The translations under genes and the position numbers were made by a program. A DNA stretch of 63,613 nt from a virus (lineage: Duplodnaviria > Caudoviricetes). The stretch is from positions 1 through 63,613 of the IMG/VR virus record IMGVR_UViG_3300044638_006592, one strand, 5' to 3'. The stretch's first letter is position 1. The number at the start of each line of letters is the position of its first letter. The notes beneath the pieces are model-generated. The model saw nothing but the letters and a program-made list of their open reading frames with translations. It did not search any database and was not told where the DNA came from. Positions 17-56,416 of this stretch are shown in pieces.

Positions 17-628
17 ATGTGGGATTTATTTAATCCCATACCAAATTTTAATTACCAAAGAATGGCATACAAATTAGATGTAGATATTTTAGATAATCCT
101 TATGTTCAAGTAGTTTGGGAAGATTATACTGAAAATTTCACACAAGAAAAAATAAAAAGTGTAAGACAATACTTCCAAAAAAAGTATAATACTACTAACG
201 TAAATGTTATTACTAAGACTAAAACTGTTGAAGAAGTAACAAACAATGTTGATATTTCTTTCAATATTTTAGATAAAAGTTATCAGACAGAACTGATTAA
301 GCAATATCTAACATCTAAATCATTAGATTCAATTTTAGATAATATTATTAACTTGGATAAAACGGTTGATAATAAACTTTATCTAAATGAAAGTGAAGTA
401 GTTCCATTCAAAAGATGGTACATTAAGAACATCGAATTTTCAAATTTCCTTTCGTATGGTGAAAACCAAAAAATTGATTTTGATAAATGTAATGGGATAA
501 GTGTTATTGAGTCAAATCCTAGTAATTTTGGTGGGAAATGCGTAAGAAGAGATACTGAGATTGATATTGAATTTAATATTGATTACATAGTTAATAAGTT
601 AGGGTTTTTACCTGATGAGTTAAAATAA
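17..628 (+). CDS. sbcC: SbcC/Rad50 (gp46-like) ATPase, N-terminal fragment fused to split-intein N part
   Basis: IKNIEFSNFLSYG (Rad50 N-terminus) and Walker A SNFGGK cut just before the S/T; followed by CVRRDTEI (intein block A) and a stop 29 aa later. Confidence 0.85.
   Translation: MWDLFNPIPNFNYQRMAYKLDVDILDNPYVQVVWEDYTENFTQEKIKSVRQYFQKKYNTTNVNVITKTKTVEEVTNNVDISFNILDKSYQTELIKQYLTSKSLDSILDNIINLDKTVDNKLYLNESEVVPFKRWYIKNIEFSNFLSYGENQKIDFDKCNGISVIESNPSNFGGKCVRRDTEIDIEFNIDYIVNKLGFLPDELK
539..625 (+). other. Split intein N-fragment (IntN, 29 aa)
   Basis: Cys1 directly after Walker A GGK; CVRRDTEIDI matches intein block A. Confidence 0.8.
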
Positions 629-683
629 TTACACCACCTCCTTACCTTTTTAGTTTGATGGTTATATTTATAATTAAAAAGAT

Positions 684-1694
684 ATGAGGAAAGTATATAA
701 TTTTAATAAAAACCAAATAAATGATATGATTAATCTTTATGTGAATGAGATGAAATCGACTATGTTTATTTCTGAAAAATATAATGTTGATTCTTCAGTA
801 ATTAAACGAGTTTTAATTAAAAATGGTGTAGAAATAATAAAAGGGTCAGCATTTAGTGTTAATTTTTGGGTTAAAAGAGGTTTATCTGAAGAAGAATCAA
901 CTCGAAAAATTAAAGAAATGAAACCAAATTTAGTTGAACATTGGTTGTGTAGAGGATTTTCTATTGAAGAATCTAAATTAAAAACTGAATTACATTTAAT
1001 GAATACTGAAAGAGCGTTTATTGTAAAATATGGTAAAGAAGAAGGAGTTAAATTATTTAGAGAAAAAAAAGTTAAAGAGGGTAAATTACATTCACCAAGA
1101 AGTGTTGAATATTGGTTAAATAAAGGATTTTCTGTTGAGGAATCAAAAAATAAAGTTTCTGAAGGTCAGAATAAATTCAGTTTAGTTAAATGTATTGAAA
1201 AATATGGTGAAGAAGAAGGTAAAATAATATTTACTGAACGACAAAAAAAATGGCAAGAATCACTTTATAAGAATGGTAATTTAAAATCCGGATATTCAAA
1301 AGTGTCACAAGATTTATTCTTTGAGTTATTAAAATATTATAAAAATGTTGAAGAATTAAATTATGTTATGTTCGCTAAAAAAGGTGGTGAGTTTGTATTA
1401 ACCAGTAATGATGGGTTTTATCGTTATGATTTTACCGATTTATTAAATAAAAAAATTATTGAATATAATGGTGATAATTACCACGCTAATCCGGACACTT
1501 ATTCTGTAAATGAAACCCCAAATCCTTTTCGTAAAAATATCACATCTGAAGATATATGGAAAAAAGATGATATTAAGATTAAATTGGCGAATAAACATAA
1601 GTATGATGTTTTAATTATATGGGATTCCGAATATAAAAAAGATAAAGAAAAAGTTATAAAAAAATGTTTAAATTTTTTAAAAAATGAAAATTAA
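684..1694 (+). CDS. Free-standing homing endonuclease, Vsr/DUF559-like C-terminal nuclease domain
   Basis: C-terminal YDF...IIEYNGDNYHANP...KKDDIKIKLA...VLIIWDSEY; internal WxxRGFSxEES and KYGxEEG repeats; lies between the two intein halves. Confidence 0.75.
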   Translation: MRKVYNFNKNQINDMINLYVNEMKSTMFISEKYNVDSSVIKRVLIKNGVEIIKGSAFSVNFWVKRGLSEEESTRKIKEMKPNLVEHWLCRGFSIEESKLKTELHLMNTERAFIVKYGKEEGVKLFREKKVKEGKLHSPRSVEYWLNKGFSVEESKNKVSEGQNKFSLVKCIEKYGEEEGKIIFTERQKKWQESLYKNGNLKSGYSKVSQDLFFELLKYYKNVEELNYVMFAKKGGEFVLTSNDGFYRYDFTDLLNKKIIEYNGDNYHANPDTYSVNETPNPFRKNITSEDIWKKDDIKIKLANKHKYDVLIIWDSEYKKDKEKVIKKCLNFLKNEN

Positions 1695-2049
1695 AATTGG
1701 GGAATTATATGAAATTTACCAAAAATATGGTGATTTAGGTTTTAAAGTTAATACACCATATGGGTATAAAAATATTGAATGGTGTGGTATTACAGAAAAA
1801 AACGCGGATATATATAGATGTGAGTTAGAAAATGGGATGTTTGTTGAAGGTGCGGATTATCATAAATTAAAAAATGATAATGATGAATTTGTCGTTCTTA
1901 AAGAACTTCAAATCGGTGAAAAAATACAAACAATTAATGGTGATAGTTTGGTAACCAATGTTAAATTATTAGATGAAAAGGATACTCTTTATGACGTTCA
2001 GGTTGCTGAGGTTCATCAATATTATACAAATGGTATTGTATCTCACAAT
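1684..2049 (+). other. Split intein C-fragment (IntC, 122 aa)
   Basis: Block B-like GADYH, block F LYDVQV, block G SHN followed by +1 Thr. Confidence 0.85.
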
Positions 2050-3903
2050 ACAGTCTTAACGGTGGATTTACTATTGTTCTTATTCTTTAATGAGACAACC
2101 AAAACAACAAAGGCCGAAGAAATATTTAATCGATTTACCGATAAAAACAAAGTATCGGTAAAGGGTGAAATTAGTATTGATGGTGAGGATTATATTATTG
2201 TTAGGCAAATTGAAAGAAAGAAAGGTAAAACTGGTGAATGGAATGTTAAAACCGAATTAGATTTCTATAAAAAACTTTCGGATGGTAGTTTGCAGAACTT
2301 CACTGGTGAACAAAGAAGAGAAACCGAAAACTTCATTAAAACATCAATTGGTTCTAAGGAAGACTTTTTAATGACGATTTTAACAACTGCAAGTAATTTA
2401 GAAGAATTAATTGATTCCAAACCAACTGCAAGAGGTCAAGTTTTGTCTAGATTTATGGGGTTAGATTTTCTTAAAAGAAAAGAAGATGTTGCGAAAGAAA
2501 TCTATACTGAATTTGCATCTTCGATGATATCTAAAGTTTACAATAGTGAAAAACTAAAACAGGATAACGAAGATTATAAAATAAAAATTCAGTCATTTAA
2601 AGATGAGAATACTAATCATCAAAATGATTTAATCCTTGTTCAAGACAGAATTATTAAAGGTCAAGAATATAGAGATGGTCTTTTAAAAAGTAAGCATACT
2701 GATATTGATAAGGAAATCACATTATTGTCTCCCGATAAAGTTACTGGTGAAATTTTATCATTAGAAACACAAAAAAAAGGAGTTCAAAAACAACTTGAAG
2801 AAATAAAAGTGATTGAACCATCATCGTATTATCACGAAGATGAACATGATTTGATAAAGGAAGAGACCAAGAAAACATTCCAACAAAAAGTTGAAGTGGA
2901 AATAAAAATCAAATCTATTGAAGAGTTGAAAAGTTCTGTTAGTGGTGGTATTAAGTGTGAGCATTGTGGTATTGAGTTAATGAATGCGGCGATTACAAAT
3001 TCTAAAATATCTCAACTTGACGGATTTATCGTGCATAAAACTCAATTATTAGGGTTAATGCAGGATTTAACCAACAAAGAACAGGCGTTTGTACAATTAA
3101 AAAAGGAATTTGATGAGTATGAAAAAAACAAACTAATCAAAGAAAAGCATGAGTTAAACATTGAAAGTTTGGATATGAAAATATCAAATCTTCAAGACAA
3201 GTTATCGAAATACAATGAACTTCAGGATAAGATTAAAGAAAATGAAAAAACTGAAACTTTAATCATTAAAGCGGGTTTAAAATTGGATGAATTGGAATCT
3301 GAAAAAACTAATTTATCAAGAAAAATTGATACGAATAATTTTCAAATTAAATCATTCGATGATAAAATTGAAAATAATAATAAATTGATTCAAAAAATCA
3401 GTGAAGAATCTGAGAAAGAAAAGATATATAAAGTTTATTTGGATATCTTTGGAAAGAATGGTATTTCTAAAATTATTATGAAAACAATGATGCCATTAAT
3501 TAATTCAGAACTACAAAGATTACTTGAAGACAGTTCACATTTTAGATTAGAAGTTCGAATTAATGATAAGAATGAAGTTGAGTTTATAATGATTGACAAT
3601 AATACTCAAGTAGAAAAACTTATGGCTTCAGGTTCAGGTTATGAAAGAACCATAGCATCATTAGCTCTTAGGTCTGTTTTAACTAAAATTTGTTCATTAC
3701 CAAAACCAAATATTGTGGTAATGGATGAAGTTTTTGGTAAGATATCTAATGATAATTTGGATATGGTAGGTGAGTTTTTCAATAAGATTAAGGAATATTT
3801 TGAAAAAATATTTTTAATTACCCATAATCCGTTGGTAACCAACTGGTCTGACAACGTTATCAAGATTAAAAAGGTGGATAATATAAGTTTTGTCACACAA
3901 TAA
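1684..3903 (+). CDS. sbcC: Split-intein C part fused to SbcC/Rad50 C-terminal fragment
   Basis: LYDVQV...YYTNGIVSHN/T intein end, then coiled coil, CEHC zinc hook, signature SGSGYE, Walker B IVVMDEVFG, H-loop LITHN. Confidence 0.9.
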   Translation: MKIKIGELYEIYQKYGDLGFKVNTPYGYKNIEWCGITEKNADIYRCELENGMFVEGADYHKLKNDNDEFVVLKELQIGEKIQTINGDSLVTNVKLLDEKDTLYDVQVAEVHQYYTNGIVSHNTVLTVDLLLFLFFNETTKTTKAEEIFNRFTDKNKVSVKGEISIDGEDYIIVRQIERKKGKTGEWNVKTELDFYKKLSDGSLQNFTGEQRRETENFIKTSIGSKEDFLMTILTTASNLEELIDSKPTARGQVLSRFMGLDFLKRKEDVAKEIYTEFASSMISKVYNSEKLKQDNEDYKIKIQSFKDENTNHQNDLILVQDRIIKGQEYRDGLLKSKHTDIDKEITLLSPDKVTGEILSLETQKKGVQKQLEEIKVIEPSSYYHEDEHDLIKEETKKTFQQKVEVEIKIKSIEELKSSVSGGIKCEHCGIELMNAAITNSKISQLDGFIVHKTQLLGLMQDLTNKEQAFVQLKKEFDEYEKNKLIKEKHELNIESLDMKISNLQDKLSKYNELQDKIKENEKTETLIIKAGLKLDELESEKTNLSRKIDTNNFQIKSFDDKIENNNKLIQKISEESEKEKIYKVYLDIFGKNGISKIIMKTMMPLINSELQRLLEDSSHFRLEVRINDKNEVEFIMIDNNTQVEKLMASGSGYERTIASLALRSVLTKICSLPKPNIVVMDEVFGKISNDNLDMVGEFFNKIKEYFEKIFLITHNPLVTNWSDNVIKIKKVDNISFVTQ

Positions 3904-5371: not shown

Positions 5372-5701
5372 ATGAAAAAAATTATTGAATTTGCTAAAAA
5401 GTATAAGATACACATTTTAGTGTCTTTATTGGTTATTTTATTTTTCCGTTCATGTTCCAAGTCAAGTGAAGTTAGAAAATTAGAAAAGGTCAACACCAAA
5501 ACTACTGAAGTTATTGATAGTTTAACTACCCTTATAAAAGGTCAGAAAGACACTATTAATAATATTTCTGAAGTTATTAGAGTTGAAAAAATTAAAATTC
5601 ATACCGAATATGATAACTACATTTCCTCTAAAAATAGAGGAGAACAATTGATGGAATTACATAAAATTGTTAAACAAAATCTTAAAAACTTAGAAAAATG
5701 A
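5372..5701 (+). CDS. Membrane-anchored coiled-coil protein
   Basis: N-terminal hydrophobic helix then heptad-rich region. Confidence 0.6.
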   Translation: MKKIIEFAKKYKIHILVSLLVILFFRSCSKSSEVRKLEKVNTKTTEVIDSLTTLIKGQKDTINNISEVIRVEKIKIHTEYDNYISSKNRGEQLMELHKIVKQNLKNLEK

Positions 5702-6492
5702 AAAAAATTTGGGAATGGATTAAATTAAATCCAAATAGAACCATGTTTTTAGTCCCAATACTTTTAGTTGCAGGAATTTCTATTTCACACGTAGTCTCGT
5801 GGTATAATCTGTCTAACCCAATTAGTTGGGCGATTTATTTGTCGATAGCGATAGAAGTTGGTGCGATGACCGCTTTGGTTGCTGCGACTAATAGAATTAA
5901 AGGCGGGGTTTGGATTATGTTTGGATTAGTAACTTTCATACAAATGATTGGTAATATATTCTTTTCATATAAGGAAATTGATTCTAATGGAGAGCTCTTC
6001 AAAGCTTGGGTAGAATTAACTGAACCTGTTTGGGAGTTTTTAGGTTCAGATACTACAGATATCATAGCATTAAAAAGATGGTTGGCGTTTTTAGAAGGAG
6101 GATTATTACCAATAATATCATTAACATCATTACATTTTTTCATAAAGTATGAAGATAACAAAAATGAGGTTGAACCAAAAACTGAAGAAAAAATAATTGA
6201 AGGGGATGTTATTAAAGAAACCCCTATTGAAGTTGTGGTTGAAAAAAAGGTACCGGTTGAAGTTATTAAAGAAGTTTTGGTAGAAAAAAAGGTGCCGGTT
6301 GATGTTATTAAAGAAGTTTTGGTAGAAAAAGAAGTACCGGTTGAAAAAATAGTTGAAGTTCCTGTAAAATATTTTGTGAATGATGAGGGGGAGATATATG
6401 ATGAAAATGGTCATCATATCAATCCTGAGACAATAACTACAACAACGGTTGATGATGGTGTCCGAAGACTTACATATACAAAACCGAGTTAA
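5698..6492 (+). CDS. Multi-pass membrane protein with VEKxVPVEVIKEV repeats
   Basis: About four hydrophobic segments and a repetitive C-terminal tail. Confidence 0.65.
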   Translation: MKKIWEWIKLNPNRTMFLVPILLVAGISISHVVSWYNLSNPISWAIYLSIAIEVGAMTALVAATNRIKGGVWIMFGLVTFIQMIGNIFFSYKEIDSNGELFKAWVELTEPVWEFLGSDTTDIIALKRWLAFLEGGLLPIISLTSLHFFIKYEDNKNEVEPKTEEKIIEGDVIKETPIEVVVEKKVPVEVIKEVLVEKKVPVDVIKEVLVEKEVPVEKIVEVPVKYFVNDEGEIYDENGHHINPETITTTTVDDGVRRLTYTKPS

Positions 6493-15596: not shown

Positions 15597-16148
15597 TTAT
15601 TGTTTTGGTGTATACTCCCTCAATTTGTCGGTATCTTCCAACAGGTATGGTGTTGGATAAAAGAGACCCAAAGGTGTATACTCACTCAATTTGTCGGTCT
15701 CTTCCAACTTATCCATCAATTCTACTGCTCGAGGTTGAGGTGTATACTCCCTCAATTTGTCGGTCTCTTCCAACAAACTATCGTCATTGATGCAGGTCAT
15801 GGCGGGTTTATACTCCCTCAATTTGTCGGTCTCTTCCAACTGGCGTGAAGTTGGCACATTGTCCATCATTGGTGTATACTCCCTCAATTTTTCGGTCTCT
15901 TCCAACCATATATTCATAATTGATTGAATTTCAGTGTACTCCATACCAAAAAATGACTCAAAAAATGACCAAATTTGATTATAATCAATCCAAAATTTCT
16001 TAGTTTTTAAATCTTGGTTAATTACAAAAATATCACCTTTTTTATAAAATATAGAATTTGGATAATAATCATGTTTGTACATTTTCATTTTATCCAAGTT
16101 AAAATTATCATTTAACCACTTTAACTTAATCTTTGTTAATTTATCCAT
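15597..16148 (-). CDS. Small phage protein (paralog of 31698..32048) whose C-terminus reads through a CRISPR-like array
   Basis: Shared YPxSIFY...QDLKxKxF...IWxFFESFFGMxY...IWLEET; then LEETDKLREYTP five times at 22 aa period. Confidence 0.75.
   Translation of the reverse strand: MDKLTKIKLKWLNDNFNLDKMKMYKHDYYPNSIFYKKGDIFVINQDLKTKKFWIDYNQIWSFFESFFGMEYTEIQSIMNIWLEETEKLREYTPMMDNVPTSRQLEETDKLREYKPAMTCINDDSLLEETDKLREYTPQPRAVELMDKLEETDKLSEYTPLGLFYPTPYLLEDTDKLREYTPKQ
15607..15906 (-). CRISPR. CRISPR-like mini-array 1: 5 x 36 bp repeats, 4 x 30 bp spacers, no cas genes in window
   Basis: Repeat GTTGGAAGAGACCGACAAATTGAGGGAGTATACACC (minus strand) at 15607-15642, 15673-15708, 15739-15774, 15805-15840, 15871-15906; spacers unique and exactly 30 nt. 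Confidence 0.8.
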
Positions 16149-16198: not shown

Positions 16199-16375
16199 TT
16201 TTCACCATTAAGGTTGAGGTATTTCTACCCGAATCGAAACTCCCGATTCTTGGAGGTTGGGTTTTCTTCCCCAGGATTTCCCGACATTCCTTTTCACCAT
16301 TAAGGTTGAGGTGTTTCTACCCGAATCGATACCCCCGATTCTTGGAGGTTGGGTTTAAGGATTTCCCAACATTCC
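16199..16375 (-). ncRNA. Tandem pair of ~90 nt GC-rich structured repeats; putative small RNA
   Basis: Copies at 16199-16290 and 16291-16375; GAATCG/CGATTC stem conserved while loops vary; bracketed by a promoter and a terminator. Confidence 0.5.
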
Positions 16376-16438: not shown

Positions 16439-16535
16439 TAGTCAGGACAGGATTCGAACCTGTTCCACGGCAAGTGATTGGTACTGACCTTTCGGTTACT
16501 CCCATTTCCGCCCGCTACCATTACGGCACCTGACT
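16439..16535 (-). tRNA. tRNA-like RNA or pseudo-tRNA; no assignable anticodon
   Basis: Acceptor AGTCAGG/CCTGACT, D-loop-like AATGGTA, perfect T arm ACAGG-TTCGAAT-CCTGT; central region long and non-canonical. Confidence 0.6.
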
Positions 16536-18123: not shown

Positions 18124-19038
18124 ATGATTTCATGGATAGGTGGTAAAAATAGAATGGCTGAATGGATTGATAGATTCATTCCAAAGGACATAGAGACATT
18201 TGTCGAACCGTTCAGTGGTATGATGTGGGTCTTTTTTAAGATGGATTTGGATAAATATCCGAATTTAAAAACAGTAGTTTATAATGATTTTAATGGGTTA
18301 AATTCTAATTTATTTAGTTGTTCAAAACAATATGATAGATTGTGGGATGAACTATCTTTATATCCTTGTCAACAGGTTGGAGTAGAAAATACACCGCCAG
18401 AATATAGAGAAATGTTTAACCAATATCAAAAAGAAATCTTTAGTCCTGAATTAATTATTACAGATGAAAATAAATTTGAAATTGCTTGTAAGTATGTTTA
18501 TGTGTTAACTCAAGTTTTTTCAGGTTCAAAACCTGAAACATCAAAATATACTGATTACAAAGGTAAATATCGTTGTAAAGTTTTGATTTTTATGGATAAG
18601 TTAAAAAATCCTGAATACAGAAAACACTTTGATAAAATTACTTTTGTTGAAAACATGGATTTTGAGGATGTAATAAAGAAATATGATGGGGATACTACTT
18701 TTTTATATATTGACGCACCTTATTGGAAAACAGAATCATATTATTCTAATCACGATTTTGATAGGAACGACCATGAAAGATTGGCAAATGTATTAAAAGA
18801 CGTAAAATCCAACTTCGCAATGTCATACTACGATTTTCCATTACTACGTCAGTGGTTTCCAACATATCAATATAAATGGGAAAAGAAAGAGTTTGCAAAA
18901 GCTGCGGCGGCAAAGAAAGGTGTAACACAAAATATGGGTGAAGAATTATTAATTATGAACTACACGTTAAACGAAGAAAAATCTGCGGTAAAGATTCCCC
19001 AACTTAAACGTGGTGAACAACTTTCATTGTTCAATTAA
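18124..19038 (+). CDS. DNA adenine methyltransferase (Dam/D12 class)
   Basis: WIGGKNR, FVEPFSG, VVYNDFN, catalytic-motif variant YIDAPY. Confidence 0.85.
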   Translation: MISWIGGKNRMAEWIDRFIPKDIETFVEPFSGMMWVFFKMDLDKYPNLKTVVYNDFNGLNSNLFSCSKQYDRLWDELSLYPCQQVGVENTPPEYREMFNQYQKEIFSPELIITDENKFEIACKYVYVLTQVFSGSKPETSKYTDYKGKYRCKVLIFMDKLKNPEYRKHFDKITFVENMDFEDVIKKYDGDTTFLYIDAPYWKTESYYSNHDFDRNDHERLANVLKDVKSNFAMSYYDFPLLRQWFPTYQYKWEKKEFAKAAAAKKGVTQNMGEELLIMNYTLNEEKSAVKIPQLKRGEQLSLFN

Positions 19039-28319: not shown

Positions 28320-28533
28320 AGAACATGTAAATCATCCAGAACATTATGGTGGGGCGGGAAATCTTTATGAAGCGATAAAAGTTATTGACGCTTGGGACTT
28401 AGGGTTTTGTTTAGGTAATACGGTTAAGTACATATCAAGAGCCGGTAAAAAAGACCCTAAGAAAGAACTAGAAGACCTTAAAAAGGCTCTTTGGTATTTG
28501 AATCATCACATTGAAAAGTTGGAAGGTAAATGA
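28309..28533 (+). CDS. DUF3310 (SaV / T7 gp1.7-like) protein
   Basis: VNHPEHY...GFCLGNTVKYISRAGKK...EDLKKALWYL. Confidence 0.9.
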   Translation: MENKEHVNHPEHYGGAGNLYEAIKVIDAWDLGFCLGNTVKYISRAGKKDPKKELEDLKKALWYLNHHIEKLEGK

Positions 28534-29318
28534 ATGCACCAGTAAGGTATTACGGAAGTAAAGGAGGTTTCTACAATAAGATTATTGAATTTTTTCCTAC
28601 TGATGGTTATGATAAATATATTGAACCTTTTGCGGGTACATTCATAGTAGGTTTAAAAAAACCAATCACAAAAATTGAAGTGTACAATGATATGGAGAAG
28701 AATGTATATTCTCTATATAAAGTAATATCGGATAAAGAATTGTTCCAACAATTTAAAGAAAAGTGTGATTTGGTTTTTTATTCTGAAGATATCAGGAAAG
28801 AATTTAAAGAAGAACTTAAAAAAGAATTATCCATAGTTGATAGAGCATTTTATTTCTTTTATGTGAATAGGACATCTCATAATGGAATTGGGGGATTCTC
28901 AATGAATACTCATGTAAGAAGAGGGATGAGTAAAGCGGTTTCAGATTTTCTATCGGCAATAGACAGACTACCTGAATTACATGACAGATTATCAAAAGTT
29001 ATTGTTACAAATACTGATGGTATTAAGTTAATTGAAAAATATAATAATCCAAATACATTACTATATTGTGACCCACCTTATGAACAGAGTACAAGAACTG
29101 GTGCAAGATATAACGTAGACATGGATAGAGAAGGACATGTTAATTTTTTAAATTCTGTAATCAATAGTAAATCAAAAATATTGATTAGTGGATATGATTG
29201 TGAATTATATGATACATTGATTGAGAATGGATTTACAAAACATCAATTTGATGTTAAAACAATTGATGGTAATTTTGAAAAGAAAACAAAAGTTGAAACT
29301 GTTTGGAAAAATTATTAA
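28530..29318 (+). CDS. DNA adenine methyltransferase (Dam/D12 class)
   Basis: YYGSKG, YIEPFAG, EVYND, YCDPPY, ETVWKNY. Confidence 0.9.
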   Translation: MNAPVRYYGSKGGFYNKIIEFFPTDGYDKYIEPFAGTFIVGLKKPITKIEVYNDMEKNVYSLYKVISDKELFQQFKEKCDLVFYSEDIRKEFKEELKKELSIVDRAFYFFYVNRTSHNGIGGFSMNTHVRRGMSKAVSDFLSAIDRLPELHDRLSKVIVTNTDGIKLIEKYNNPNTLLYCDPPYEQSTRTGARYNVDMDREGHVNFLNSVINSKSKILISGYDCELYDTLIENGFTKHQFDVKTIDGNFEKKTKVETVWKNY

Positions 29319-29338: not shown

Positions 29339-30190
29339 ATGATTGAAAATTACGTTGGTAAAGTATTAAATGGTGATTGTATTGAGGTGATGTCAGAAAT
29401 ACCTGAGTCATCTGTACATTTGGTGGTTTGTAGTCCTCCATACAATGTTCAGATTCCTTATGACACCCACAAAGATGATTTACCTATGAGTGAATATTGG
29501 GATTGGACTGAGAAATGGTTAACACAGGTTTATCGACTACTAAAGGATGACGGTAGAGTTTCAATCAATATTCCTTATGAAGTAAATGTTCAAGAAAGGG
29601 GTGGTAGAGTATTTTTTGTGTCTGAATTTTATCAGGTAATGAAAAAAGTAGGTTTCAAGTTCTTTGGTATTATTGATTTGGAGGAAGATAGTCCACATAG
29701 AAGTAAGACTACAGCTTGGGGTTCTTGGATGAGTCCATCAAGTCCATATATATACAATCCAAAGGAATGTGTAATATTGGGTTATAAAAAACAACATGTA
29801 AAAATAGTTAAAGGTCAACCTCAATGGACTGGTGAGTTAGTTGAACAGGAAGATGGTAAGAAGAAAATGATATACAAGGAAGAAGATAAGAAAGACTTTA
29901 TGGAGTTAGTATTTGGACAATGGAAATACTTGAATGATAGTAGACCTTTAACTAAGGCAACTTTTAGTATGGACATTCCAACAAAAGCAATAAAGATATT
30001 AACATACAAAAACGATATTGTTCTTGACCCATTCGCAGGAAGTGGAACCAGTTTGGTTGCTGCTGAGATATTAGATAGACGATGGATTGGAATTGAGTTA
30101 TCACCAAACTATACGGAAGTTGCAAGAAAACGAGTCTCAACATTTAAATTAGAGAAACAACAATTAAATTTAGAATTTGAAAGAGGTTAA
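29339..30190 (+). CDS. DNA methyltransferase, N4/N6 beta class
   Basis: GDCIE, SPPYN, VLDPFAGSGT, WIGIELS. Confidence 0.9.
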   Translation: MIENYVGKVLNGDCIEVMSEIPESSVHLVVCSPPYNVQIPYDTHKDDLPMSEYWDWTEKWLTQVYRLLKDDGRVSINIPYEVNVQERGGRVFFVSEFYQVMKKVGFKFFGIIDLEEDSPHRSKTTAWGSWMSPSSPYIYNPKECVILGYKKQHVKIVKGQPQWTGELVEQEDGKKKMIYKEEDKKDFMELVFGQWKYLNDSRPLTKATFSMDIPTKAIKILTYKNDIVLDPFAGSGTSLVAAEILDRRWIGIELSPNYTEVARKRVSTFKLEKQQLNLEFERG

Positions 30191-30235: not shown

Positions 30236-30613
30236 ATGTCTAATAAAATATTAATATCAGAAGAAGAAAAAAGTAGAATTTTAAATCTACACGAGAATTT
30301 CAAAACTAAAGGGATTTTAAATGAACAAGATGATGACCCACAGCATAGTTTTGTAAGAGGGGTTCAAAGATTCTTGAATGAAAAAATTAAAGCTGGGTTA
30401 ACCGTAGATGGGTTAACAGATAATAATATGAAATCAAAAACAGCACAAGCAATCGGTAAATACCAACAAAATTTGGGTGTTTATCCTGTAGATGGTGTTT
30501 GGGGTCCTGAAACTTGGTCAAAGATGACAAAAGAAGATAAAGAAAGATTAAAGGACCTTGTTGCTGAAGAAGGTGGATTAATTGACAGATTCCTTCGTTG
30601 GATTGGATTATAA
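30236..30613 (+). CDS. Peptidoglycan-binding-domain protein with ISEEEKSRIL leader
   Basis: VQRFLN...LTVDG...TAQAIGKYQ...VDGVWGPET. Confidence 0.7.
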   Translation: MSNKILISEEEKSRILNLHENFKTKGILNEQDDDPQHSFVRGVQRFLNEKIKAGLTVDGLTDNNMKSKTAQAIGKYQQNLGVYPVDGVWGPETWSKMTKEDKERLKDLVAEEGGLIDRFLRWIGL

Positions 30614-31695
30614 AAAAAATACTTATGAAAACAAAATCACTTAATGAGAATGAATTGAAAGAAAAAATCTTTCAAATCTATAAAGAGGAAGAAATAAAAA
30701 TATTCGAACAAAAATGGAATAGTTTATCTTCTGATGATAAAAAATTTGTTTTGGAGTTCTTAAAAGTTCTTCATCCTGAAAAATCTAAATTATTGAACGA
30801 AGCAAAATGGTATAATACTGTTGGAGATATTGCAGGTATATTTGACCCTACAGGAACTGTTGATTTGATAAATGGTATTAGTTATTGGAAACAAGGTGAC
30901 CATTTATTTGCTTTATTATCTTGGATTTCAGTAATTCCTTATGTTGGTGATGTGGTAGCTAAACCAGTAATTGGTGTTTTTAAAGCGGGAGGAATTATTG
31001 GTAAAGAATTTAAGGCTGCTATGGTTGCTGGTGATGCCGCTAAAATAGCATCAACGGCAAAACAATCAGGACCACTTAAAATATTTGTTGAGAGAGCTCC
31101 AATTTGGGGTGGTGAATTAATAAAAATGTTATCCGGATTTATAAATAAATTTCCAATAGTTAGACGTATCATTCCACTCATCGAAAATTATGTTAAATTA
31201 TTTAAAAGTGCTTCAGTTGAAATGAAGACCGCGAGTAAAGCAGGTAAAGAAGCGGAAGCGGTATTTAAAGGGTTTAGAGAGTTTGGTGGAGTTAAGAATA
31301 ATTGGTTGAAATATATGAAATCAAACGCACCTCTTTGGGAAAAATTAAATGCTGGCAGTTTTAGATTATTCGGAGGTAATCCGGCAACAAGGTCATTAAT
31401 GAGAAGAAGTAAGTGGTATTTAGGATTTTTGGATGCTGTTGGATTAGCGAATACTGTAGGTCCTGAAGAAGTTGAATCTAAAGTTCCTGATTTCGAAGCA
31501 AAACTTGATGAATACAATAGAAGTCCTCAAGCTCAAAGAAATATGGAACAAGACGTTGCAAGTTCAAAAGTTGAAGCGGTTCCACCTCCACCTACATCAA
31601 CAAGTACATCATCACCAATTCCAACTGACCCATTTACATTATTGGGTTCATTGTTTGGTGGTTCATCATCAGGTCTTGGTAAAGTTTTATCGTAA
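30598..31695 (+). CDS. Phage protein with pre-toxin TG-like hydrophobic segment
   Basis: DIAGIFDPTGTVDLING...LLSWISVIPYVGD; start probably MKTKSL near 30625. Confidence 0.5.
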   Translation: MDWIIKKILMKTKSLNENELKEKIFQIYKEEEIKIFEQKWNSLSSDDKKFVLEFLKVLHPEKSKLLNEAKWYNTVGDIAGIFDPTGTVDLINGISYWKQGDHLFALLSWISVIPYVGDVVAKPVIGVFKAGGIIGKEFKAAMVAGDAAKIASTAKQSGPLKIFVERAPIWGGELIKMLSGFINKFPIVRRIIPLIENYVKLFKSASVEMKTASKAGKEAEAVFKGFREFGGVKNNWLKYMKSNAPLWEKLNAGSFRLFGGNPATRSLMRRSKWYLGFLDAVGLANTVGPEEVESKVPDFEAKLDEYNRSPQAQRNMEQDVASSKVEAVPPPPTSTSTSSPIPTDPFTLLGSLFGGSSSGLGKVLS

Positions 31696-31697
31696 AT

Positions 31698-32048
31698 ATG
31701 AAATATCTTATAACGGAATCAAAAGTAAGGGAAATTGCGTTAAAATGGATGAATGATAATTTTAGTCCAGACCAATTGGAAATTGTTAAAAGTCCAAAAT
31801 ATCCTGACTCAATTTTTTACAGAAAAAATGGTCAAGTTGTTATGGAACAGGATTTAAAAAAGAAAAATTTTTACTTTCATTATGATGAAATTTGGTTATT
31901 TTTTGAATCGTTTTTTGGTATGAAATACTCTGAAATAGAACAACTTATGGAGATATGGTTGGAAGAGACCCTTAATTTAGAGGAATATACACCTATCAGT
32001 GAGTACGTAATCAATGGCATTGGTGGTTGGAAGAGACCCTTAATTTAA
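31698..32048 (+). CDS. MKYLITES-family protein whose 3' end is repeat 1 plus spacer 1 of CRISPR-like array 2
   Basis: Paralog of 15597..16148; LEETLNLEEYTP is encoded by the 36 bp repeat. Confidence 0.8.
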   Translation: MKYLITESKVREIALKWMNDNFSPDQLEIVKSPKYPDSIFYRKNGQVVMEQDLKKKNFYFHYDEIWLFFESFFGMKYSEIEQLMEIWLEETLNLEEYTPISEYVINGIGGWKRPLI

Positions 32049-32323
32049 AGGGATATACACCTAGATTATGGTTTTAGGTTGCCATCAGCTAGTTGGAAGA
32101 GACCCTTAATTTAAAGGGATATACACCTTTTCATAATAAATTCTATTTTATTGTTACGTTGGAAGAGACCCTTAATTTATAGGAATATACACCTCAATAC
32201 CGCGATAAAAATGGACGGACAGGTTGGAAAACACTCTCAATTTAGAGGGATATACACCCAATGATTCAGGTATATCGCAGATGTTTTAGTTTAAAAATAC
32301 TCTCAAATTAAAACAGAATCACC
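31958..32323 (+). CRISPR. CRISPR-like mini-array 2: 5 x 36 bp repeats plus one degenerate terminal repeat; spacers 32/30/30/29/30 bp
   Basis: GTTGGAAGAGACCCTTAATTTAAAGGGATATACACC-type repeats at 31958, 32026, 32092, 32158, 32223; degenerate copy 32289-32323; internal CCCTT/AAGGG stem. Confidence 0.85.
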
Positions 32324-32659
32324 TTCTCGAATACCTAATTTTTTACAGGTATTACCTTTCAATTCAAGTATGGTATCACCAGTTCCAAAATAGTTTGGAC
32401 AATCTTCAGTTTCACAAGGAGGACAATTATGGTGGATTTTTGTAATAACATTATCTTCAATAAAAATAATGTCTAATGGTATAATGCAGTTTTTCATCCA
32501 AAATGCGTGTTCACCTGAGTTCATCAAAAATAACATACCATTAAATGTGTTATCAAAGTTTTTACCCATCATACCTTTTGAGGTATCTTTTTGAGAAAAT
32601 ACAACTTTGACTTTGAATTTGTGATTTCCTATATTTATTAACATAACTATAAATATCAA
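32303..32659 (-). CDS. DUF192 family protein
   Basis: GMLF...FWMKNCIIPLDIIFI...ILELKGN...LGIREGD. Confidence 0.85.
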   Translation of the reverse strand: MIFIVMLINIGNHKFKVKVVFSQKDTSKGMMGKNFDNTFNGMLFLMNSGEHAFWMKNCIIPLDIIFIEDNVITKIHHNCPPCETEDCPNYFGTGDTILELKGNTCKKLGIREGDSVLI

Positions 32660-32662
32660 ACT

Positions 32663-33061
32663 ATGGATAACTTTAATAGGTCAGCAGGAATAATTGTAAA
32701 ATGTGGTGATGAGGTTTTGCTTTGTAAAAGAAGTGAAGACCAAACTTATGGTGGTGTTTGGAGTATTCCTAGTGGTCATCTAAATAAAGGTGAAGATGCT
32801 ATTGATGCCATGAAAAGAGAGTTCGAAGAAGAAACAAATCTTAAAGTTAATAAGAATCTTAAATTAATTAGTTTTATTCCAATGGGTAAAAGTCTTATGT
32901 ATGTTTACCTTATGAAAGTTAAAGAAAAGATATATCCTGACTTAGAAAATGCTGTTGATGGAATCGAACACTCTGAATGTGGTTGGTTCACATTTGATAA
33001 CATTCCTGAGTCAGTAAATGAAAAACTTAAAAAAGTTATTGAAATTTCATACAAGGATTGA
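32663..33061 (+). CDS. NUDIX hydrolase
   Basis: Nudix box GHLNKGEDAIDAMKREFEEETNL. Confidence 0.9.
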   Translation: MDNFNRSAGIIVKCGDEVLLCKRSEDQTYGGVWSIPSGHLNKGEDAIDAMKREFEEETNLKVNKNLKLISFIPMGKSLMYVYLMKVKEKIYPDLENAVDGIEHSECGWFTFDNIPESVNEKLKKVIEISYKD

Positions 33062-33191
33062 GTTTTTTTCAACTTTGTGTATATTTATATTCACAAACCA
33101 ATCCCCCTTCTTTATTGGTTAAATTATAAAACCCAAGTAAAAGTAAAATTTTATTTGGGTTTTTTGTTTTTCAGGAAAAATATTTGTATAT

Positions 33192-33644
33192 TTGTTGAGT
33201 ATGGGAAATAATATTCAAATAAAGAACAGAAAAGTTTCATTTGAATATGAGATTATTGAGACTTATACTGCCGGAATCGTACTTCAAGGAACTGAGGTTA
33301 AAATGATTAGGGAAGGTAAAGTATCAATGGTTGACAGTTATTGTTATTTTAGTGATGGTGAACTATTTGTTAAAAATTTATTAATAAACGAATCTAAATC
33401 TTTTTTCACTCACAAACCTGACAGAATTAAGAAACTTTTGTTGAAGAAACAAGAATTAGTTAAGATTGAGAATAAACTTGTTAAGGGATTAACGTTATTA
33501 CCATTCAAGTTATTCACGAATGAGAAAGGTGTAATAAAAATTGAGGTTGTATTAGGTAGAGGTAAAAAATTGTATGATAAGAGAGAGAGTTTGAAACTGA
33601 AAGATATAAAGAGAATACAAAATTGTCAACTAAAAATAAAATAA
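33192..33644 (+). CDS. smpB: SsrA-binding protein SmpB
   Basis: NRKVSFEY...AGIVLQGTEVKMIREGK...KLLLKKQE...GRGKKLYDKRE. Confidence 0.95.
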   Translation: MLSMGNNIQIKNRKVSFEYEIIETYTAGIVLQGTEVKMIREGKVSMVDSYCYFSDGELFVKNLLINESKSFFTHKPDRIKKLLLKKQELVKIENKLVKGLTLLPFKLFTNEKGVIKIEVVLGRGKKLYDKRESLKLKDIKRIQNCQLKIK

Positions 33645-34361: not shown

Positions 34362-35156
34362 ATGTTAAATAGAATTACTGAACAGCCATTTTACCAAACC
34401 CGTGTTAGTGGCAGTACTTTTGTGAACGCTGACTGCTTTGATGTTTTTCCTTTTATTGAGGACAAATCAATTGATGCTATTATTTGCGATTTACCTTATG
34501 GAACTACTAACTGTAAATGGGATTCTGTTTTGGATTTGAATAAACTTTGGGAACAATATAAACGAATACTAAAAGATAATGGAGTGGTAATTTTATTTGC
34601 ACAAACACCATTTGATAAAGTGCTTGGTTGCTCAAATTTGGAATGGTTAAAATACGAATGGATTTGGGAGAAAACACAAGCAACAGGATATTTTAATGCA
34701 AAGAAAATGCCTATGAAAGCACACGAAAATATTTTAGTATTTTACAATAAAACTCCAAAGTTTAACCCACAAAAAACAGAAGGACACAAGCCTGTAAACA
34801 CCTATACCAAGAAAGCAGAAGTTTGTAATAAAACAGAAGTGTATGGGAAAGTAAAACAAGATGTAAGTGGTGGTGGAGAAACTGACAGATACCCAAGAAG
34901 TGTGCAAGTTTTTTCTTCAGATAAACAGAAAACAAAACTTGATGGAACTATACATCCTACACAGAAGCCACTTGCTTTACTTGAAATGCTTGTAAAATCA
35001 TATACAAACGAAAGCGATATGGTATTGGATAACACAATGGGTTCAGGAACAACAAACTTGGCTTGTATCAAATTAAATCGCAAATCAATTGGTATCGAAA
35101 AGGAAAAACAATATTACGATGTCGCTGTTCGGAGGGCTTCGGAGTATTGCCACTAA
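34362..35156 (+). CDS. Cassette 2 DNA methyltransferase, N6/N4 beta class
   Basis: ICDLPYGTT, KYEWIWEK, HPTQKP, VLDNTMGSGTT; stop codon is the TAA of the next TAAC. Confidence 0.9.
   Translation: MLNRITEQPFYQTRVSGSTFVNADCFDVFPFIEDKSIDAIICDLPYGTTNCKWDSVLDLNKLWEQYKRILKDNGVVILFAQTPFDKVLGCSNLEWLKYEWIWEKTQATGYFNAKKMPMKAHENILVFYNKTPKFNPQKTEGHKPVNTYTKKAEVCNKTEVYGKVKQDVSGGGETDRYPRSVQVFSSDKQKTKLDGTIHPTQKPLALLEMLVKSYTNESDMVLDNTMGSGTTNLACIKLNRKSIGIEKEKQYYDVAVRRASEYCH
34380..34407. repeat. Right half of an attC-like site (left arm apparently deleted)
   Basis: GCCATTTTACCAAACCC-GT-GTTA followed by GTGGCAGTAC, complementary to the cassette end at 35144-35157. Confidence 0.6.
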
Positions 35157-56113: not shown

Positions 56114-56416
56114 ATGAAATATCTAATAACTGAGTCAAAGTTAAAACAGACATTATTCAAATATTATGATTCAATTTTTGAAGATTGGTATTTTGTGGAA
56201 AATGGTGATTGGGAAGGAGTGTCAGTTCCAAAATATAATGGTGAACTTTTAATCGGTTATAAAAAAGATGACCCAAATACTGGTTATTATTGGGGTGATG
56301 TAATAGGTATTGATTTTATTGAATCTTTATTTGGGTTACCAAATGATGAACAAAAACAATATTTAAAAGAATATGTGGAGGAAAAATTTAATTTAAAATT
56401 TGACACTTTAATGTAA
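56114..56416 (+). CDS. MKYLITES-family protein
   Basis: Leader MKYLITESKL; tail KEYVEEKFNL. Confidence 0.65.
   Translation: MKYLITESKLKQTLFKYYDSIFEDWYFVENGDWEGVSVPKYNGELLIGYKKDDPNTGYYWGDVIGIDFIESLFGLPNDEQKQYLKEYVEEKFNLKFDTLM

Follow-up and report, generated by a model that had tools for sequence, protein, structure and literature searches.

Introduction

Arrays of type VI-B (Cas13b) and type II CRISPR systems combine 36-nt repeats with 30-nt spacers. Type VI-B systems are further marked by a cas13b gene, by direct repeats that fold into a structure, and by spacers complementary to the transcripts they target, and type II systems by a tracrRNA whose anti-repeat is complementary to the repeat. 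Viruses reportedly carry Cas-less arrays of one to five spacers that are presumed to use cellular Cas machinery, and these viral mini-arrays are said to copy the repeat and leader of the host and to hold spacers targeting related viruses. In described CRISPR arrays, to our knowledge, the leader is not a protein-coding gene. Compact arrays lacking Cas1/2/4, with spacers against bacterial chromosomal genes, have been described in huge phages, where spacers against a sigma-70 gene and a glycyl-tRNA synthetase gene of the host were interpreted as guides against the host (Al-Shayeb et al. 2020, PMC7162821).

Here, we analyze a 63,613-nt stretch of phage DNA (IMG/VR virus record IMGVR_UViG_3300044638_006592, hereafter the window) that holds two small arrays, one of them with a spacer matching bacterial uvrB. 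Set beside the huge-phage arrays (Al-Shayeb et al. 2020, PMC7162821), the uvrB-bearing array is similarly compact (6 repeats here, a median of 6 there), has no Cas1/2/4 on the available sequence, and includes a spacer matching a bacterial chromosomal gene; the phage also resembles huge phages in having its own sigma-70, chaperone, and translation-related genes. It differs in that the arrays described there are ordinary intergenic ones, often beside an effector or resembling host repeats, whereas ours start inside the 3′ end of an ORF, and in that the ORF-array unit occurs more than once (2 copies in the window and 6 copies in the related record G004) with no Cas partner found. Virus-borne mini-CRISPR arrays and solitary repeat units share with it a small size, a lack of Cas genes (here on the sequence scanned), and a location on a viral genome. 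Unlike those, however, the repeat had no host counterpart in 185,579 genomes, the leader is a gene, and no spacer matched related phage records, nor did any of the 4 window spacers searched in IMG/VR (0 matches). The 36-nt repeat, the modal spacer length of 30 nt, the GTTGG or GGTGG starts, and the ACAAC ends of some repeats recall type VI-B and type II arrays, but no cas13b or cas9 was seen, there is no conserved hairpin and no anti-repeat in the window, and the orientation of the uvrB spacer does not suit the targeting of mRNA. Finally, the repeats lie in an ORF, their period is a multiple of three, and in-frame stops are avoided, as in coding tandem repeats mistaken for CRISPR; one-ended turnover of whole spacers, a foreign spacer, variable spacer lengths, and a decaying terminal repeat set them apart from such repeats.

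A phage mini-array with a spacer from a bacterial chromosome is thus known already, and what is new is the ORF-embedded array, which looks translated. Our literature search returned no description of CRISPR arrays that start inside a conserved ORF or that are translated, though this does not prove that none exists.

Results

A large lake phage with two related arrays

The record is an IMG/VR virus fragment with a CheckV completeness of 22% and a G+C content of 0.285, and the phage is very large (about 290 kb), low in G+C, and from lake water. Members of the small ORF family described below were found on contigs of 297,925 and 307,689 bp. Among the 24 runs listed, 20 contained at least 89% of the sampled words from positions 30600–33600 of the window; these 20 runs, from 20 studies, are all labeled lake water metagenome, and five carry a flag as possible sources. 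The window encodes a sigma-70 factor, DUF932, a tyrosine recombinase, a CCA-adding-like enzyme, an SbcC-like ATPase, DnaJ, SmpB, NUDIX, DUF192, an SPFH protein, and a glycosyltransferase. Genes for a T4-like terminase, portal, and Gp23 capsid protein, together with Hsp70, are found in a distant relative that shares the ORF-array family. The SmpB gene lies at 33192–33644 on the plus strand (PF01668, E 7.8e-44), and no tmRNA gene to go with it was detected in the window by ARAGORN or Rfam. Four DNA methyltransferase genes are found within 17 kb (18124–19038, 28530–29318, 29339–30190, and 34362–35156), two of the D12 (Dam-type) class and two of the N6_N4 (N6/N4) class, which suggests heavy protection of the genome against restriction.

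Several further elements were noted. A separate Rfam search matched a tRNA of 97 nt at 16439–16535 on the minus strand (RF00005, 44.4 bits against a gathering score of 29, E 1.2e-7), the length of which suggests an intron or a long extra arm; it is absent from the ARAGORN output, and the Rfam scan of the window at gathering thresholds reported nothing. Between this tRNA and the array-1 ORF are two 66-nt direct repeats (16199–16356), 95% identical, 92 nt apart, and matching no Rfam family, after which comes a strong terminator-like hairpin (16199–16170, minus strand). That hairpin excepted, promoter and terminator scans around the arrays stayed at shuffle level. Three tandem 42-nt coding repeats, 74–93% identical to the reference copy, occur at 6229–6369 (plus strand) within an ORF at 5698–6492.

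Array 2, at 31958–32324 on the plus strand, consists of six 36-nt repeats and spacers of 32, 30, 30, 29, and 30 nt, giving a period of 65–68 nt. Its consensus repeat, GTTGGAAGAGACCCTTAATTTAAAGGGATATACACC (36 nt), is present in two identical copies (32026–32061 and 32092–32127), two copies with 2 mismatches, and two decayed copies; allowing up to 3 mismatches, it was found four times in the window and never in 100 shuffles. The place of the CRISPR leader is occupied by a small conserved ORF. The features of array 2 are as follows:

31698–31993, plus strand: small conserved ORF, a domain of ~87 aa followed by 12 codons that are repeat 1
31958–31993, plus strand: repeat 1, 2 mismatches to the consensus, coding for LEETLNLEEYTP, the end of the ORF
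31994–32025, plus strand: spacer 1, 32 nt, its core without a match in IMG/VR
32026–32061, plus strand: repeat 2, consensus
32062–32091, plus strand: spacer 2, uvrB fragment in sense orientation, with a TAG in the repeat's reading frame
32092–32127, plus strand: repeat 3, consensus
32128–32157, plus strand: spacer 3, 30 nt, 13% G+C
32158–32193, plus strand: repeat 4, 2 mismatches to the consensus, with an in-frame TAG created by one of them
32194–32222, plus strand: spacer 4, 29 nt, with a 30-nt in-frame form in the variant protein P0123
32223–32258, plus strand: repeat 5, degenerate, 83% identical to the reference copy
32259–32288, plus strand: spacer 5, 30 nt, also in the variant P0123
32289–32324, plus strand: terminal repeat, strongly degenerate

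As called, the array-2 ORF ends at 32048, within repeat 2, since the 32-nt spacer 1 shifts the frame. The in-frame TAG of repeat 4 fits a distal part of array 2 that is no longer read by ribosomes. The reverse complement of spacer 3 ends in ATGAAAA, and the look of a gene start that had been remarked on from the letters alone is visible there.

Array 1 lies on the opposite strand, and a third paralogue of the ORF was found elsewhere in the window:

15597–16148, minus strand: array 1 with its ORF, a paralogous small ORF whose domain is 56% identical to that of the array-2 ORF
15607–15906, minus strand: array 1 proper, 5 repeats and 4 spacers, the repeat related to that of array 2
15871–15906, 15805–15840, 15739–15774, 15673–15708, and 15607–15642, minus strand: the repeats of array 1
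56114–56416, plus strand: third, distant ORF paralogue without an array, 100 aa, ending in ...YVEEKFNLKFDTLM (E 0.0035)

The reading frame of the array-1 ORF (P0001, 183 aa) is open through its 5 repeats and four 30-nt spacers. Together, the nine spacers of the window are 29–32 nt long, unique, and mutually unrelated.

A small gene family whose 3′ end is the repeat

The first repeat of both arrays is made up of the last twelve codons of the paralogous small ORFs (LEETLNLEEYTP and LEETEKLREYTP). That the repeats are the terminal codons of the upstream ORF is a point the sequence-only reading overlooked. The ORF domain is a genuine protein, as its dN/dS of 0.31–0.39 between orthologues reflects purifying selection and AlphaFold gives a confident fold (pLDDT 93) of a helix, a four-strand sheet, and two helices, the last predicted helix being completed by the residues that the repeat encodes.

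A profile search for the family retrieved 829 clusters (50% identity) at E ≤ 1e-3 among 1.84 billion representatives, and the family has no Pfam or PHROG match; looking up clusters returned nothing more specific than "hypothetical protein". At the level of the domain, tblastn against 50,697 GenBank phages gave no match, the best Foldseek result against the PDB had an E of 0.19, the best VIA-align result among 48,161 chains had a Z of 4.6 (rmsd 2.6 over 69 residues), and BFVD yielded only uncharacterized "uncultured Caudovirales phage" proteins. Family members stand alone (about 100–120 aa), follow one another in tandem, or form the end of a larger protein, as in the 591-aa ORF of L002. Among the top 150 family representatives, 30 proteins have internal repeats, and in 29 of these the period is 22 aa.

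In related IMG/VR records, 34 arrays linked to such ORFs were counted across 16 sources, with up to 6 per record (the maximum being in G004). All 34 have 36-nt repeats that co-vary with the C terminus of the ORF; the repeats start with GTTGG or GGTGG and, in some relatives, end with ACAAC. Five of the ORF-array units of G004 stand in tandem within 3.3 kb (624–3863). In a distant family member (L016 2740–2780; G004 12,9xx), one "spacer" comprises three copies of a 12-nt unit and seems to have grown by slippage, not capture.

A spacer from bacterial uvrB

The second spacer of array 2 (32062–32091, plus strand) is TAGATTATGGTTTTAGGTTGCCATCAGCTA, and its translation from the third base reads DYGFRLPSA, which the sequence-only reading took for a conserved UvrB motif. 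This identification was confirmed: solved UvrB structures of different organisms share (E/D)(Y/H)GFRLPSA(F/L)DNRPL, and three different solved UvrB sequences carry LVEYGFRLPSAFDNRPL, LVDYGFRLPSALDNRPL, and LVDHGFRLPSALDNRPL at the aligned place. It also bore out at the nucleotide level, where the absence of a near-exact match to any uvrB would have told against it. A 27-nt core of the spacer was found exactly in five metagenome records, one of which (L006) is the same phage array, identical over the array. In the other four (L004, L005, L007, and L008; G+C 0.35–0.36), the core lies inside an ORF of 678 aa. This ORF reaches 1045 bits on NCBIfam TIGR00631 uvrB (cut-off 750) and 1058 bits on NF003673 (cut-off 743), and it matches a solved UvrB with an E of 7e-253. 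Its neighbors on these contigs encode ribosomal proteins S6 and L9, DnaB, alanine racemase, and RadA, all ordinary chromosomal genes. Over the whole spacer, 28 of the 30 bases match the metagenomic uvrB, with positions 2 and 30 differing in all four contigs. The exact 27-mer had no occurrence in 185,579 species genomes or in IMG/VR. Given the exact core and the 28/30 match overall, the spacer is captured bacterial uvrB DNA, and that its donor was a bacterium is secure.

The spacer had also been described as lying in sense orientation relative to the repeat, and this holds, since uvrB reads in sense on the strand that carries the GTTGG... repeat and codes for the upstream ORF. The spacer is closed in the repeat frame and, in the window, also stands behind the frameshift introduced by the 32-nt spacer 1. 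The further proposal that the array contains DNA from the host chromosome stood in part: the fragment does come from a bacterial chromosomal uvrB gene, and the host would be its simplest donor. The best-matching lineage differs from the spacer at positions 2 and 30, the two non-conserved positions outside the searched core. As to the suggestion that the spacers could identify the host, 1 of the 9 in the window found any match. Strand-unbiased capture, likewise suggested, depends on two spacers, that from uvrB and another assigned solely through a 9-residue motif. The latter is spacer 2 of array 1 (15775–15804), whose antisense reading is TIVIDAGHG, which we take to resemble a motif of N-acetylmuramoyl-L-alanine amidase. 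At the nucleotide level it matched no amidase gene in IMG/VR, GenBank phages, or plasmids.

Sources of the other spacers were sought in several collections. The cores of spacers 1 and 2 of array 1 and of spacer 1 of array 2 gave 0 matches in IMG/VR. With blastn, both arrays against 50,697 GenBank phages and array 1 against 72,556 plasmids returned chance-level matches alone (E 0.1–5) and no amidase gene. A source match is therefore in hand for 1 of the 9 window spacers, that from uvrB, where 4 were searched in IMG/VR and the uvrB spacer alone in genome and metagenome collections. A comparison of the 76 spacers in the 34 arrays against the related phage records and the host contigs turned up three minor matches besides the arrays and uvrB. 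Two of these are weak (21–23 of 25 bases), and one is a 27/28 match inside the tandem array cluster of G004 itself, where the third spacer of the array at 1076 has a copy ~540 nt downstream.

Polar turnover and reading frame of the spacers

Comparison of close relatives showed how the arrays change. The related record G001 (also L003) is 96.8% identical to the window over 24.5 kb, and in array 1 the two genomes have spacers 3 and 4 in common (29/30 and 30/30 bases) while the two ORF-proximal spacers are different. Similarly, protein P0122 has one additional ORF-proximal spacer ahead of spacers 1 and 2 of the window's array 2, and L032 has two ahead of the single spacer of L027. Old distal spacers are thus common to relatives and the ORF-proximal end is where they differ, which points to polar acquisition. 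In most arrays the terminal repeats are decayed in their 3′ half. The 64 distinct spacers comprise 47 of 30 nt, 11 of 29 nt, 3 of 31 nt, and 1 each of 27, 32, and 33 nt, with a mean G+C of 0.37 against 0.28–0.33 for the phage records. Taken together, one-ended turnover, terminal decay, spacer lengths, and the foreign uvrB spacer speak for polar acquisition of spacers and against a coding repeat that has drifted.

Several properties by which CRISPR arrays are recognized are present: near-identical direct repeats at regular intervals and within the usual 23–55 nt, unique spacers of uniform size, and polar growth with a decayed last repeat. Upstream, however, is a conserved ORF in place of a non-coding leader. 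A coding tandem repeat, for its part, should keep its frame open throughout and have units divisible by three; in array 2 of the window, the frame is lost after spacer 1.

The spacers nevertheless show a coding-like signal. With the junction codon counted, 49 of the 64 distinct spacers are open in the repeat frame, compared with 31.7 ± 3.8 after shuffling, and a count of 49 did not arise in any of 5000 shuffles. Stop trinucleotides in the spacers are distributed over the three phases as 46/9/17, the 9 being in the repeat frame, versus 33/28/28 on the other strand. Among spacers that translation could reach from the ORF, 42 of 50 are open (binomial p 4e-7), and behind the first stop or frameshift the figure is 7 of 14, the chance level. 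In 15 of the 64, the uvrB spacer included, a stop closes the repeat frame within the spacer or at its junction, and 17 of the 64 are not 30 nt long. We know of no reason to expect coding-like stop avoidance in ordinary CRISPR arrays. It is conceivable, and we propose it tentatively, that the ORF and array form one translation unit in which selection keeps ORF-proximal spacers free of stops. Translation may be needed for guide expression, for example by shielding an otherwise untranslated repeat-spacer RNA from Rho-dependent termination or decay; Rho-dependent termination within CRISPR arrays has been the subject of earlier work. Alternatively, CRISPR-type capture may have been co-opted to diversify the C-terminal tail of a phage protein, with 12 repeat residues followed by 10 variable ones.

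Search for Cas partners

Cas1 (PF01867) was absent from all 10 related virus records, which overlap, total ~480 kb, and are each 4–37% complete. No Cas family was detected among 38 distinct large ORFs (Pfam on 36, PADLOC on 20), namely 11 from the window, the 591-aa ORF of L002, and 26 from the relatives G001 and G004–G007, and no large HEPN-like ORF was recognized among the ORFs scanned. A pattern for a matching host repeat (13 + 8 conserved end bases around 15 N) occurred in 0 of 185,579 species genomes and in 2 IMG/VR contigs. In the window, which is 22% of the genome, no anti-repeat stretch of at least 13 matching bases exists outside the arrays on either strand. The 18 distinct repeats yielded no consensus structure, and their folding energies were shuffle-like, giving no sign of a conserved hairpin.

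Discussion

We consider it probable that 32062–32091 is a CRISPR-type spacer taken from bacterial uvrB, held in a phage mini-array with polar insertion at the ORF junction. New spacers would be inserted at the junction of the ORF and first repeat by a Cas1-Cas2-like integrase, which the host might provide or which might be encoded in the three quarters of the phage genome that lie outside the record. The uvrB fragment would derive from chromosomal DNA in the infected cell, most simply that of the host, broken down during infection, and the array would probably be transcribed together with the ORF.

Two readings would do away with a captured spacer altogether. That the likeness to uvrB is a chance one we give practically no credence; the shortness of the match is all that speaks for it, and about 1e-4 to 6e-4 matches are expected for a given 27-mer under a uniform model, and here a 27-nt identity falls within a uvrB ORF and reads the UvrB motif in uvrB's own frame. 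The exact 27-mer inside an ORF that scores as UvrB refutes it. Improbable too, if to a lesser degree, is that the arrays are not CRISPR but the coding 3′ part of a gene for a repetitive-tail protein (12 conserved and 10 variable residues), diversified by another cassette mechanism and flagged falsely by CRISPR finders. Much about the locus would suit such a gene: the repeat is the ORF's own C-terminal coding sequence and lies partly in the last predicted helix, the period of 66 nt equals 22 codons, the period seen in 29 of the 30 repeat-bearing proteins among the top 150 representatives, array 1 can be read through its 5 repeats without a stop, stops in the repeat frame are avoided (49/64 spacers open; phases 46/9/17), and cas genes were not found. 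It is hard to square, however, with 17 of 64 spacers departing from 30 nt and 15 of 64, that from uvrB among them, closing the frame, with the in-frame TAG of repeat 4 in the window, and with changes between repeats of one array that are non-synonymous. Nor would a coding tail be expected to replace whole spacers at one end only between genomes 97% identical, to contain foreign bacterial DNA in a different frame, or to include a spacer that reads as an enzyme motif on the antisense strand only. Capture of a bacterial spacer into a CRISPR-type array therefore remains our preferred reading.

Who the donor was, and what the spacer does, are further matters. That the donor was the phage's host is the simplest inference. 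That it was an OM43-like bacterium of the Methylophilaceae and also the host, so that the spacer names the host, seems unlikely to us. Among bacterial records, the exact 27-mer was found in the four metagenome contigs alone (G+C 0.35–0.36), NCBI gives the name "Methylophilaceae bacterium" to proteins 100% identical to the UvrB of these contigs (relatives of the L004 UvrB at 94–96% identity bear the NCBI name "Nitrosomonadales bacterium"), and the mean spacer G+C of 0.37 is near theirs. Yet both discriminating positions, 2 and 30, are mismatched in all four; outside the core, the first spacer base, which matches, is a conserved second codon position, and the next spacer codon begins with A where these contigs have CAT. 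Moreover, the motif is invariant in protein across phyla, so that the 27-nt identity amounts to nine coinciding codon choices and one lineage matching by chance is plausible; a rough estimate of ~6e-5 per unrelated AT-rich lineage would give about one such lineage in a large metagenome collection. OM43-like clusters at 94–95% protein identity are far commoner (up to 307 contigs), yet did not yield the 27-mer, and some of the identical UvrBs are tagged "tara", whereas the 20 of 24 listed runs with the phage are all lake water. In four phage-positive lake runs, the OM43-like uvrB (L004:3400–4100) was matched only by pieces of 45–66 nt, nearly all less than 90% alike, and no contig of these runs spans the stretch, which is not proof of its absence. 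SprB repeat domains are typical of Bacteroidota surface proteins, and a relative with ~70% identity (G005) has a 1061-aa tail-fiber-like ORF with SprB repeats (L043:14219–17404; PF13573, E 8.5e-27), which counts against an OM43-like host; another relative (G006) has a large tail-fiber-like ORF of the same kind (L047:5595–7913; PF13573, E 2.9e-6). These ORFs are a possible hint of a Bacteroidota host. Searching the protein atlas with the phage SmpB yielded no usable pointer to the host. As to function, a guide RNA in the sense of the ORF would have the sense of uvrB mRNA, so that the template strand of the DNA would be its only pairing partner; unable to pair with mRNA, the spacer would be either a DNA-level guide or functionless by-catch. 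We are doubtful that it is a working guide with which the phage and a host or phage effector cut or silence host uvrB and so disable nucleotide excision repair. The spacer does occupy a well-preserved stretch of the array, with a consensus repeat on either side, and huge-phage arrays against host genes are reported and so interpreted (PMC7162821). No effector was found in the sequence scanned, however, an mRNA-sense spacer is unusable by an RNA-targeting effector with an ORF-sense transcript, and the sole known target has two mismatches. The choice of an ultra-conserved motif could equally be chance, because a conserved motif is all that a reader of the bare sequence could recognize.

Taken as a captured CRISPR-type spacer, the uvrB fragment is a further example of a huge phage keeping a piece of bacterial chromosome in a CRISPR array. 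If its donor is the host, it would provide a culture-free link between an uncultured lineage of 300-kb lake phages and its host, and a hint of phages aiming at host DNA repair. The context outweighs the spacer itself: a widespread, unannotated family of small genes whose 3′ end doubles as the CRISPR repeat from which the array grows. This raises the questions of how an integrase can recognize a repeat that must also obey a reading frame, where such an integrase comes from, and why stops are avoided in spacers that translation reaches. If true, either reading of a translated array would be an undescribed mode of CRISPR-array organization, in a family of 829 clusters.
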